DNA of 64,000 nucleotides from Escherichia coli (GTDB lineage: Bacteria; Pseudomonadota; Gammaproteobacteria; Enterobacterales; Enterobacteriaceae): assembly GCF_009931435.1 (NCBI RefSeq), contig NZ_CP043414.1, one strand, 5' to 3'. Made by a program: the position numbers and the translations under genes. The stretch's first letter is position 1. Every line of letters starts with the position of its first letter. The notes under the pieces are model-generated. The model saw only the letters and a list, made by a program, of their open reading frames with translations. It did no database searches and was not told where the DNA came from. Shown here in pieces: positions 19,832 to 63,722 of this stretch.

Positions 19832-21444
<1,613 letters not shown>

Positions 21445-21446
21445 TT

Positions 21447-21575
21447 AGCATACTCTATGACTTTCGAGGTGCAGGAAGGCGGCAAGACCGTGAATCCCTG
21501 GGAGCTTACTAAAGTAAGTGACCAGGGTGAACGGGTGCAGCCAAGGCACCTGCAACTTGAAAGGCGACGAGTATG
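21447..21575. repeat. ERIC (IRU) enterobacterial repetitive intergenic consensus element
   Basis: ~129-bp imperfect palindrome; core GTGAATCCCTGGGAGCTTACTAAAGTAAGTGACCAGGGTGAACG matches the ERIC1R/ERIC2 primer region; fills the whole era-recO spacer. Confidence 0.7.
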
Positions 21576-22304
21576 ATGGAAGGCTGGCAGCGCGCATTCG
21601 TATTGCATAGTCGCCCGTGGAGCGAAACCAGCCTGATGCTGGACGTCTTCACGGAGGAATCGGGTCGCGTGCGTCTGGTTGCCAAAGGCGCACGCTCTAA
21701 ACGCTCTACTCTGAAAGGTGCATTACAGCCCTTCACTCCTCTCTTGCTACGTTTTGGCGGGCGTGGCGAAGTCAAAACGCTGCGCAGTGCTGAAGCTGTC
21801 TCGCTGGCGCTGCCATTAAGCGGTATCACCCTTTACAGTGGTTTGTACATTAACGAACTTCTCTCCCGCGTGCTGGAATACGAGACGCGCTTCTCTGAAC
21901 TCTTTTTCGATTACTTGCACTGCATTCAGTCTCTTGCAGGTGCCACTGGTACGCCAGAACCCGCGCTGCGCCGCTTTGAACTGGCACTGCTCGGGCATCT
22001 GGGCTATGGCGTCAATTTTACCCATTGTGCGGGTAGCGGCGAGCCGGTAGATGACACCATGACGTATCGTTATCGCGAAGAAAAAGGGTTTATCGCAAGT
22101 GTCGTTATCGATAATAAAACGTTCACCGGAAGGCAGTTAAAAGCGTTAAACGCGCGGGAATTTCCTGACGCAGACACACTGCGCGCCGCGAAACGCTTTA
22201 CCCGCATGGCGCTAAAGCCGTATCTTGGCGGTAAACCATTAAAGAGCAGGGAACTGTTCCGGCAGTTTATGCCTAAGCGAACGGTGAAAACACATTATGA
22301 ATGA
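21576..22304 (+). CDS. recO: DNA repair protein RecO
   Basis: 242 aa from ATG 21576 ([20 protein letters not shown]); ORF track starts one codon earlier. Confidence 0.9.
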
Positions 22305-60740: not shown

Positions 60741-61478
60741 ATGCTGCAAAATATTCGAATTGTGCTGGTGGAGACGTCACACACCGGTAATATGGGTTCT
60801 GTTGCCCGTGCCATGAAAACAATGGGCTTAACCAATCTGTGGCTGGTTAATCCACTAGTGAAACCTGACTCCCAGGCGATTGCTCTGGCAGCAGGGGCCA
60901 GCGATGTGATTGGTAATGCTCACATTGTCGATACACTCGACGAAGCGTTAGCCGGTTGTAGCCTGGTGGTTGGCACCAGTGCACGCTCGCGCACGCTGCC
61001 GTGGCCGATGCTCGACCCGCGCGAATGCGGTTTGAAAAGCGTCGCTGAAGCGGCAAATACGCCGGTGGCACTGGTTTTTGGTCGTGAGCGTGTCGGCTTG
61101 ACCAATGAAGAGTTGCAAAAGTGCCATTATCATGTCGCCATTGCCGCTAACCCGGAATACAGTTCGCTGAACCTGGCGATGGCTGTTCAGGTTATTGCCT
61201 ATGAAGTGCGCATGGCCTGGCTGGCGACTCAGGAGAACAGCGAGCAGGTTGAACATGACGAGACGCCGTATCCGCTGGTCGATGATCTGGAACGTTTTTA
61301 CGGTCATCTTGAACAAACGCTGCTGGCAACCGGTTTTATCCGTGAAAACCATCCGGGGCAGGTGATGAATAAGCTACGTCGTCTGTTTACCCGTGCGCGC
61401 CCGGAAAGCCAGGAGTTGAATATCCTGCGCGGGATTCTGGCTTCTATTGAGCAGCAGAATAAAGGTAATAAGGCCTGA
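60741..61478 (+). CDS. trmJ: tRNA (cytidine/uridine-2'-O)-methyltransferase
   Basis: 245 aa; SpoU/TrmH SPOUT fold; divergent from suhB. Confidence 0.92.
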
Positions 61479-61507
61479 GGGCTAAGCCAGATAAGTGCAC
61501 GGACGGT

Positions 61508-61545
61508 CCCCTCGCCCCTTCGGGGAGAGGGTTAGGGTGAGGGGA
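61508..61545. repeat. GC-rich palindromic intergenic repeat (Box C-like)
   Basis: CCCTCGCCCCTTCGGGGAGAGGGTTAGGGTGAGGGGAA; resembles the E. coli Box C dispersed repeat as recalled; 30 bp after trmJ stop. Confidence 0.45.
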
Positions 61546-61659
61546 ACAGGCCAGCGCTAATGCGAATAATTGCCCTCAACCCGCTCATGGTCTGGAAGGA
61601 CAACAGGTACAAACGCCACGATAAAAAAATGGCACTGAAGGTTAAATACCCGACTAAAT

Positions 61660-61778
61660 CAGTCAAGTAAATAGTTGACCAATTTACTCGGGAATGTCAG
61701 ACTTGACCCTGCTATGCAATACCCCCACTTTTACAATAAAAAACCCCGGGCAGGGGCGAGTTTGAGGTGAAGTAAGAC
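61660..61778 (+). promoter_or_regulatory. iscR promoter/operator region (expected IscR autoregulatory sites)
   Basis: AT-rich region with TTGACC hexamers (61675-61680, 61704-61709) and TACAAT (61732-61737) upstream of iscR ATG; individual IscR site boundaries not resolved. Confidence 0.45.
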
Positions 61779-62267
61779 ATGAGACTGACATCTAAAGGGC
61801 GCTATGCCGTGACCGCAATGCTTGACGTTGCGCTCAACTCTGAAGCGGGCCCGGTACCGTTGGCTGATATTTCCGAACGTCAGGGAATTTCCCTTTCTTA
61901 TCTGGAACAACTGTTTTCCCGTCTGCGTAAAAATGGTCTGGTTTCCAGCGTACGCGGGCCAGGCGGTGGTTATTTGTTAGGCAAAGATGCCAGCAGCATC
62001 GCCGTTGGCGAAGTAATTAGCGCCGTTGATGAATCTGTAGATGCTACCCGTTGTCAGGGTAAAGGCGGCTGCCAGGGGGGCGATAAATGCCTGACCCACG
62101 CGCTGTGGCGTGATTTGAGCGACCGTCTCACCGGTTTTCTCAACAACATTACTTTAGGCGAACTGGTTAATAACCAGGAAGTGCTGGATGTATCTGGTCG
62201 TCAGCATACTCACGACGCGCCACGCACCCGCACACAAGACGCGATCGACGTTAAGTTACGCGCTTAA
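61779..62267 (+). CDS. iscR: Fe-S cluster regulator IscR (Rrf2 family)
   Basis: 162 aa; [19 protein letters not shown] wHTH; cluster ligands in [13 protein letters not shown]. Confidence 0.96.
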
Positions 62268-62271
62268 TTTA

Positions 62272-62400
62272 ACCGTCCTGTTTCGTGTTGCATCTGCGTT
62301 GACTGCACATACTCACTCCGGTCACTTACTTATGTAAGCTCCCGGAGATTCGTAAGTTTGTCAACTTGCTGAAACCCGAAACAGTTAGGTTAAAGATAAC
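62272..62400. repeat. ERIC-like imperfect palindrome in the iscR-iscS spacer
   Basis: Core CACTCCGGTCACTTACTTATGTAAGCTCCCGGAGATTC aligns with the ERIC central region and with the reverse complement of the element at 21447-21575; flanking arms partly complementary. Confidence 0.6.
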
Positions 62401-62507
62401 AAGATATTAGAATCAGGCCGGGGCGTATCGCGCTCCGTAAACACGGTCGTACATCCAGCCGGTAGCCTGGTTCCTTGCATTGAGTGATGTACGGAGTTTA
62501 TAGAGCA

Positions 62508-63722
62508 ATGAAATTACCGATTTATCTCGACTACTCCGCAACCACGCCGGTGGACCCGCGTGTTGCCGAGAAAATGATGCAGTTTATGACGATGGACGGA
62601 ACCTTTGGTAACCCGGCCTCCCGTTCTCACCGTTTCGGCTGGCAGGCTGAAGAAGCGGTAGATATCGCTCGTAATCAGATTGCCGATCTGGTTGGCGCTG
62701 ATCCGCGTGAAATCGTCTTTACCTCTGGTGCTACCGAATCTGACAACCTGGCGATCAAAGGTGCTGCTAACTTTTATCAGAAAAAAGGCAAGCACATCAT
62801 CACCAGCAAAACCGAACACAAAGCGGTACTGGATACCTGCCGTCAGCTGGAGCGCGAAGGTTTTGAAGTCACTTACCTGGCACCGCAGCGTAACGGTATT
62901 ATCGACCTGAAAGAACTCGAAGCAGCGATGCGTGACGACACCATCCTTGTTTCCATCATGCACGTAAATAACGAAATCGGCGTGGTGCAGGATATCGCGG
63001 CTATCGGTGAAATGTGCCGTGCTCGTGGCATTATCTATCACGTTGATGCAACCCAGAGCGTGGGCAAACTGCCTATCGACCTGAGCCAGTTGAAAGTTGA
63101 CCTGATGTCTTTCTCCGGTCACAAAATCTACGGCCCGAAAGGTATCGGTGCGCTGTATGTGCGTCGTAAACCGCGCGTACGTATCGAAGCACAAATGCAC
63201 GGCGGCGGTCACGAGCGCGGTATGCGTTCCGGTACTCTGCCTGTTCACCAGATCGTCGGGATGGGCGAAGCCTATCGCATCGCAAAAGAAGAGATGGCGA
63301 CCGAGATGGAACGCCTGCGCGGCCTGCGTAACCGTCTGTGGAACGGCATCAAAGATATCGAAGAAGTTTACCTGAACGGTGACCTGGAACACGGTGCGCC
63401 GAACATTCTCAACGTCAGCTTTAACTACGTTGAAGGTGAGTCGCTGATTATGGCGCTGAAAGACCTTGCGGTTTCTTCCGGTTCTGCCTGTACGTCAGCA
63501 AGCCTCGAACCGTCCTACGTGCTGCGCGCGCTGGGGCTGAACGACGAGCTGGCACATAGCTCTATCCGTTTCTCTTTAGGTCGTTTTACTACTGAAGAAG
63601 AGATCGACTACACCATCGAGTTAGTTCGTAAATCCATCGGTCGTCTGCGTGACCTTTCTCCGCTGTGGGAAATGTACAAGCAGGGCGTGGATCTGAACAG
63701 CATCGAATGGGCACATCATTAA
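62508..63722 (+). CDS. iscS: Cysteine desulfurase IscS
   Basis: Start at ATG 62508 ([19 protein letters not shown], 404 aa); PLP-lysine [12 protein letters not shown], active-site loop SSGSACTS. Confidence 0.96.

Follow-up and report, generated by a model that had tools for sequence, protein, structure and literature searches.

An ERIC element between the iscR stop codon and the iscR mRNA stability element in a subset of Escherichia coli

Intercistronic repeat hairpins can alter the relative stability of the segments of a polycistronic mRNA. REP/BIME elements are known as mRNA stabilizers, for example in malE-malF. Correia/NEMIS elements are processed by RNase III (PMC10969869). ERIC elements, which form a repeat family distinct from both, are not known to be processed in this way. 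In Yersinia, ERICs that abut stop codons lower the level of the upstream transcript in an orientation-dependent manner, and the mechanism described for Yersinia enterocolitica is that ribosomes reaching the stop codon melt the hairpin, so that an RNase E site in its 3' arm becomes accessible (De Gregorio 2005, via PMC2229807, PMC3184786, and PMC10969869). In E. coli K-12, RyhB sets off the decay of iscSUA, and the iscR part of the mRNA is protected from it by a REP-like structure in the spacer between iscR and iscS (Desnoyers 2009, via PMC7038943 and PMC12533949).

ERICs and the RyhB/iscRS differential-decay switch are each well known, and their juxtaposition is absent from the literature that we searched, in which no paper mentions an ERIC in the iscR-iscS spacer; the RefSeq records that we checked carry no annotated feature for it. 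The locus described here is a new one for a known element beside a known regulatory RNA, and not a new mechanism.

The iscR-iscS spacer and its ERIC element

We analyzed a stretch of 64,000 nucleotides of E. coli DNA (here called the window), in which iscR is followed by iscS (Table 1). The encoded IscR protein is identical to K-12 IscR over 162 of 162 residues (BLASTP). From the end of iscR and the position of the iscS ATG, the spacer comprises 62268-62507, or 240 bp, in agreement with the original prediction, which had also suggested, correctly, a spacer of about 111 bp for K-12; in MG1655 it is 111 bp (locus L001: iscR 1180-1668, iscS 1780-2994). When the two spacers were aligned, they were found to differ by a 129-bp insertion with ERIC homology, which occupies 62268-62396 of the window.

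Table 1 Features of the iscR-iscS region, in coordinates of the window
Feature	Coordinates	Strand	Basis
iscR CDS, including TAA stop	61779..62267	+	ORF list; RefSeq annotation of matching genomes
ERIC (IRU/RU-1) element, 127 bp	62268..62394	+	K-12 without it; consensus alignment; hairpin; compensatory changes
Left terminal inverted repeat of ERIC, TTTAACCGTCCTGTTTCG	62268..62285	+	Pairs with 62377-62394 in minimum-energy and centroid folds
ERIC central core (ERIC-PCR primer region), forms apical hairpin	62321..62342	+	Exact match
Right terminal inverted repeat of ERIC, CGAAACAGTTAGGTTAAA	62377..62394	+	Without (G/A)AUU(A/U) RNase E motif (motif scan)
Single-stranded linker between ERIC and stability element, GATAACAAGATATTA	62395..62409	+	P(unpaired) ~0.7
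iscR stability element, Rfam RF01517 (iscRS)	62397..62506	+	cmscan, 118.3 bits
Predicted RyhB pairing region and iscS translation-initiation region	62460..62510	+	RNAduplex; K-12 alignment
iscS CDS, 404 aa	62508..63722	+	ORF list; RefSeq annotation of matching genomes

The extra DNA is one copy of ERIC, a miniature inverted-repeat element. A gap-free alignment of 62268-62394 covers the full 127 nt of the E. coli ERIC consensus (as printed in PMC2759123, Table 1a), with 92 of 127 positions identical (72%), and the element is 70% identical to Salmonella SeRU-1. The mRNA strand corresponds to the "ORF strand" of the consensus, which carries the core GTCACTTACTTATGTAAGCTCC. This 22-mer, quoted in the original prediction as the center of an ERIC-type imperfect palindrome, is present exactly and is identical to the consensus; when up to 3 mismatches are allowed, the core occurs twice in the window and not at all in 100 shuffles. 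The isc copy shares with the ERIC/IRU family its length of 127 bp, its exact core, its long terminal inverted repeats, and its folding into one long hairpin, as well as an intergenic position in an operon, a presence that varies among strains, and divergent flanks. A second copy at the era-recO junction means that the window holds multiple dispersed, extragenic, transcribed copies, as is characteristic of ERICs. The isc copy departs from the E. coli consensus in the remaining 28% of positions, in its termini, which are TT...AA where the consensus has TA...TA, and in the right arm, where the AAUUA is missing. The empty sites, TAA/TAAAAAG in K-12 and TAA/AAGATAAAAAG in E. albertii (the slash marks the junction), are 125 to 129 bp shorter than the filled site. 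No clean TA target-site duplication is visible at the isc ERIC, whose flanks are too diverged for one to be recognized.

In an Rfam scan of 61400-62800, the ERIC gave only subthreshold matches, such as one to CssrA at 21.8 bits (gathering score, 93), and there appears to be no ERIC family in Rfam. A weak match on the minus strand to RF02818 (V_AS5, a Vibrio antisense RNA; 62272-62394, 20.7 bits, gathering score 96, E 0.21) spans the whole ERIC and model positions 1 to 129, and the Vibrio V_AS5 RNA family may be ERIC derived.

Folding of the spacer RNA revealed the stable structure that the original prediction had expected there. The ERIC RNA folds as one long imperfect hairpin of -45.8 kcal/mol (z score, -5.2), and 0 of 200 shuffles were as stable. 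The mRNA-sense hairpin is weaker than that of the opposite orientation (-45.1 versus -53.9 kcal/mol). Among 8 aligned ERIC sequences, 18 of the 39 consensus hairpin pairs show double-sided, pair-preserving changes, from which we conclude that the hairpin is under constraint, at either the RNA or the DNA level.

Neither a promoter-like nor a terminator-like site was found in the spacer in a scan of 61480-62560, a scan of low sensitivity that did not detect the known iscR promoter either. The GC-rich hairpin followed by a U tract that marks an intrinsic terminator is not found in the ERIC, and GAUAACAAGAUAUUAG comes after the element. The iscR reading frame continues into the open-frame strand of the ERIC (62265-62369), and read-through of the TAA would add 34 residues (FNRPVSCCICVDC...) before a TGA is reached; given the one-in-three chance of a frame match, this shared frame is probably a coincidence.

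Other repeats in the window also vary among strains. The second ERIC copy lies at 21441-21570, between era (20539-21444) and recO (21573-22304), and its orientation relative to transcription is opposite to that of the isc copy. It was found in only 15 of 5,425 complete E. coli genomes (100% match, strain 2020CK-00188), and in all of the other genomes the era-recO junction is about 120 bp shorter. This copy and Salmonella SeRU-1 (PMC2759123) share the TTTAGTAAG core variant and are 77% identical. The trmJ-iscR spacer (61479-61778) is repeat polymorphic as well. It measures 300 bp in the window, with a GC-rich BoxC-like repeat, CCCCTCGCCCCTTCGGGGAGAGGGTTAGGGTGAGGGG, at about 61500-61555; 451 bp in K-12, with three REP/BIME-like copies; and 269 bp in strain Z0117EC0005, with one copy. 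The 180 bp before iscR, which contain the promoter region, are identical among the spacers compared.

The iscR stability element and the RyhB pairing region

The original prediction held that an ERIC-sized hairpin in this spacer would be the structure that protects the iscR portion of the mRNA, or a lineage-specific elaboration of it. We found that the protective structure is encoded separately. Directly downstream of the ERIC, and without overlap, is a match to RF01517 over model positions 1 to 110 of 110 (118.3 bits versus a gathering score of 40; E 1.5e-31), while the ERIC segment itself gave no RF01517 match above the gathering score in the Rfam scan. The long REP-like stem of the iscRS element occupies 62410-62473, and its apical hairpin is of the type that we call W. 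The mean pair probability of the iscRS stems is 0.85 without the ERIC and 0.82 with the ERIC upstream, and in a fold of the whole spacer the ERIC and the iscRS element form two independently folding modules. The ERIC is thus a module of its own, with the iscR stop codon on one side and the iscR stability element on the other.

The two modules have some properties in common, since they occupy the same spacer and the same mRNA and each forms a stable hairpin 3' of iscR at which exonucleases could be stopped; a hairpin of -45.8 kcal/mol directly 3' of iscR could in principle stop 3'-exonucleases on its own. However, they are distinct in sequence and structure. The strain in which the protective element was defined is K-12 (PMC7038943), where the spacer is 111 nt long and contains no ERIC, so the ERIC cannot be the element defined there; that element is separately present and intact in the window, and more than 90% of E. 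coli genomes lack the ERIC. The proposal that the ERIC hairpin itself protects iscR during iscSUA degradation is already contradicted as far as the primary element is concerned, and we regard it as extremely unlikely. The original prediction is right that an ERIC is present, that the K-12 spacer is shorter, and that the extra hairpin is an addition that varies among lineages, at the site of RyhB-dependent differential decay.

The predicted RyhB target is also unaffected by the insertion. The best predicted duplex with RyhB lies at 62460-62500 (-25.2 kcal/mol, RNAduplex), and the K-12 sequence gives a comparable duplex in the same region of the iscS leader (-24.7 kcal/mol); the RyhB sequence used is 100% identical in E. 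coli genomes, including one ERIC-containing strain. The sequence from 62474 through the iscS start is identical to that of K-12, and G62470, which is an A in K-12, is the only difference both in the 3' arm of the long stem and in 62460-62510. RyhB pairing inside the ERIC was considered and rejected, as the best duplex there is weak (-15.6 kcal/mol).

The ERIC could also act as a switch, if its core, once opened (about 62310-62339), paired with the iscS leader (62474-62500) and masked the RyhB target or the ribosome-binding region, thereby changing iscS translation or RyhB access. In constrained folds, the minimum-energy structure includes this long-range pairing, and its duplex energy of -31.7 kcal/mol compares with -23.1 ± 3.2 kcal/mol for shuffled ERIC sequences, 3 of 500 of which did as well. 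In contrast, when each orthologous ERIC was paired with the leader of its own locus, the energies were -24 to -27.5 kcal/mol and fell in the range of the shuffles, so that the pairing is not conserved. The duplex would also have to compete with an intramolecular hairpin of -45 kcal/mol, and the core is conserved in all ERIC copies regardless of locus. Because of the lack of conservation in orthologues, we treat this pairing as a chance match despite the 3 of 500 shuffles, and a switch of this kind seems to us hardly credible.

The apical hairpin of the iscRS element is itself dimorphic in E. coli (window, 62419-62437; L001, 1689-1707). The form CCGGGGCGTATCGCGCTCCG is found in the window, HS, O157, SCU-105, and E. 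albertii, and the form CCGGAGTGCTAAATACTCCG is found in K-12, 536, and 33E. Over 98 nt there are 10 differences, of which 9 are in this hairpin, where pairing is kept, and the tenth, at 62470, exchanges a G-U for an A-U pair in the long stem. About 35% of genomes have the W type and about 65% have the other, or K, type, and this split is independent of ERIC status.

Distribution and age of the insertion

The long, ERIC-containing spacer is present in 489 to 490 of 5426 complete E. coli genomes (about 9%), among them E. coli HS (NC_009800) and strains of serotypes O111:H8 and O111:H11. Each of these genomes has a single copy, and identity among the copies is 99% or more. Genomes that lack the ERIC carry short spacers of at least three alleles: one of 111 bp with a W-type apical hairpin like that of the window (O157:H7 and SCU-105), one of 111 bp with the very different K-type hairpin (K-12 and 536), and one of 115 bp (strain 33E, like E. 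albertii). The flanking 300 to 380 nt of iscR and iscS differ by only 1.6 to 3% among E. coli. In contrast, the 13 nt of linker before the stem differ at 4 to 5 of 13 positions between E. coli with and without the ERIC but at only 1 of 13 between ERIC-containing E. coli and ERIC-containing Citrobacter werkmanii.

We also found the ERIC at this site outside E. coli. In C. werkmanii (L004), an ERIC follows directly past the iscR stop codon in the same orientation and is 76% identical to the window copy, and the two share substitutions away from the consensus (a TTT start, TTTCGTG, GCAC, AAGTTTG, and an AAA end). Genomes that have the same IscR protein and an iscS 95 to 96% identical to that of C. 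werkmanii have an empty 112-bp spacer, and among those relatives one Citrobacter locus (L089) has an ERIC with a 49-bp internal deletion. A metagenome scan for the ERIC core together with the iscRS core recovered the E. coli allele twice more and full ERICs at the same site in two further lineages. One of these (L099) is a relative of "Escherichia sp. ESNIH1" with an iscS 96.3% identical; the iscS of the other (L107) is at most 91.7% identical to any labeled locus. "Escherichia sp. ESNIH1" itself (L037) keeps only the two ERIC ends (TTTATCCGTTCATAC/GGGTAA), which still form a mini-hairpin.

Since the site, the orientation, the derived substitutions, and the right flank are common to E. coli, C. 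werkmanii, L099, and L107, the data point to a single ancient insertion. The simplest reading of these sequences would be one insertion followed by repeated loss and recombination. The insertion would be older than the split of Escherichia and Citrobacter from each other and from two or more further enterobacterial lineages, and the element would since have been lost in most lineages while surviving in about 9% of E. coli. Wilson and Sharp reportedly described, in 2006, ancient insertion with repeated loss as the general pattern of E. coli ERICs. The species scan comprised 80 loci, and Salmonella, Klebsiella, and most Escherichia species are not among them, so the age of the insertion and how often it was lost are bounded only roughly.

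The occurrence of both allele classes in Escherichia and in Citrobacter could also mean that the alleles with and without the ERIC set different IscR/IscSUA ratios and that both are kept by selection across species. A balanced polymorphism of this kind would fit the linker, which separates the E. coli alleles and unites the ERIC alleles of E. coli and Citrobacter, and the preservation of the hairpin by covariation. However, repeated loss by deletion, together with recombination, gives the same pattern; decayed copies exist; identity among the ERIC-containing alleles of E. coli is 99% or more; and the alleles are not known to differ in phenotype. We consider balancing selection very unlikely as the explanation of this distribution. 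A broader proposal, in which the ERIC would have been kept over tens of millions of years as a functional module and, by altering iscR 3'-end processing, would give ERIC-containing strains (HS and O111) a different IscR set point under iron limitation, with the alleles forming a balanced polymorphism across genera, is in our judgment a long shot.

The iscR-iscS spacers of other genera differ widely in length. Those of the Enterobacterales range from 39 to 281 bp (loci L005, L007, L009, L012, L016, L025, L026, L028, L032, and L053), with 170 bp in Pluralibacter, 186 bp in Shimwellia, 252 bp in Pectobacterium, and 281 bp in Rouxiella, and those of Vibrio and Aeromonas are only 20 to 60 bp. Many genera have an unrelated extra hairpin or insert of their own between the iscR stop codon and the conserved leader, and structured insertions appear to be especially frequent at the site past the stop codon. 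The long spacers (208 to 281 bp) of Pectobacterium, Brenneria, Rahnella, Rouxiella, and Providencia were considered as candidates for ERIC insertions and rejected, as their sequences are not ERIC.

Predicted consequences for iscR mRNA

The position of the isc ERIC invites comparison with the ERICs of Y. enterocolitica. As there, the element lies within an operon, directly at the stop codon of the upstream gene, is probably co-transcribed with the genes on both sides, and is oriented such that the 3' arm of the consensus would contain an RNase E motif. The isc locus differs in that the motif is absent and a dedicated stabilizer lies directly downstream.

If the isc ERIC behaved like its Yersinia counterparts, ribosomes at the iscR stop codon would melt its left arm, and RNase E would cut the freed 3' arm and the linker; the cut would sever iscR from the iscRS structure, and iscR mRNA and IscR would be lower in ERIC-containing strains. 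Several features of the locus are consistent with this course of events, which has been described for Y. enterocolitica (PMC2229807, PMC3184786, and PMC10969869). The ERIC begins at the first base past the iscR stop codon (a distance of 0 nt), and at that distance the left terminal repeat would lie inside the footprint of a ribosome terminating there. When the first 12 to 20 nt were held open in folding, P(unpaired) of the right arm rose from 0.23 to about 0.6 while the iscRS element stayed folded. The isc copy would be transcribed in the only orientation that gives the consensus ERIC a right-arm (G/A)AUU(A/U), at positions 111 to 116 in a motif scan, the orientation being assigned from the position of this motif in the consensus, and the linker contains an AU/AUU-type site (read by eye).

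However, the right-arm RNase E motif is absent from the isc copy and from its orthologues in C. werkmanii, L099, and L107; these copies read GAAACAG, GAACTAT, or AAAACAG where the consensus has GAATTAT. This absence makes destabilization less likely, and it would also be consistent with selection against a cleavage that separates iscR from its stabilizer. In addition, K-12 has a comparable AU-rich linker (GAAUUC) without an ERIC, and we found no data on E. coli ERICs. We therefore consider a Yersinia-type destabilizing role unlikely.

We think it likely that the ERIC is an ancient copy, often lost since its insertion, that sits between the iscR stop codon and an intact stabilizer as a passenger or at most as a redundant barrier. 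It lies inside the iscRSUA operon, the stability element downstream is intact, and the predicted RyhB target and the iscS start region are unchanged, so that its most likely role is that of a passenger hairpin transcribed along with the operon and, at most, an additional barrier. RyhB would pair near the iscS start as in K-12, and iscSUA would be degraded; 3'-to-5' decay would halt at the iscRS structure, and the surviving stable iscR fragment would be about 129 nt longer than that of K-12. The ERIC would contribute to these steps at most as a second, redundant exonuclease barrier and as a spacer that increases the distance between terminating ribosomes and the stability element.

That the element is dispensable follows from the more than 4,900 of 5,424 E. 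coli genomes that lack it and from an IscR identical to that of K-12. The decayed copies in Citrobacter L089 and in ESNIH1 (L037), and the loss of the consensus RNase E motif from the isc copy and its orthologues, support the same reading. Two observations argue against a mere passenger. The compensatory substitutions across genera, together with the 76% identity of the E. coli and Citrobacter ERICs, suggest constraint beyond pure neutrality, and a left arm that starts at the base past the stop codon is also found in those Yersinia ERICs that change the level of the upstream mRNA.

If the insertion has no effect, this locus is one more ancient presence/absence polymorphism of ERIC. In about 1 in 11 sequenced E. 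coli genomes, including that of the commensal HS, a structured insert of 127 nt separates the iscR stop codon from the stabilizer, and this natural variant could show whether stop-adjacent ERICs act on mRNA stability in E. coli as they do in Yersinia and how much distance from the terminating ribosome the iscR stabilizer tolerates.
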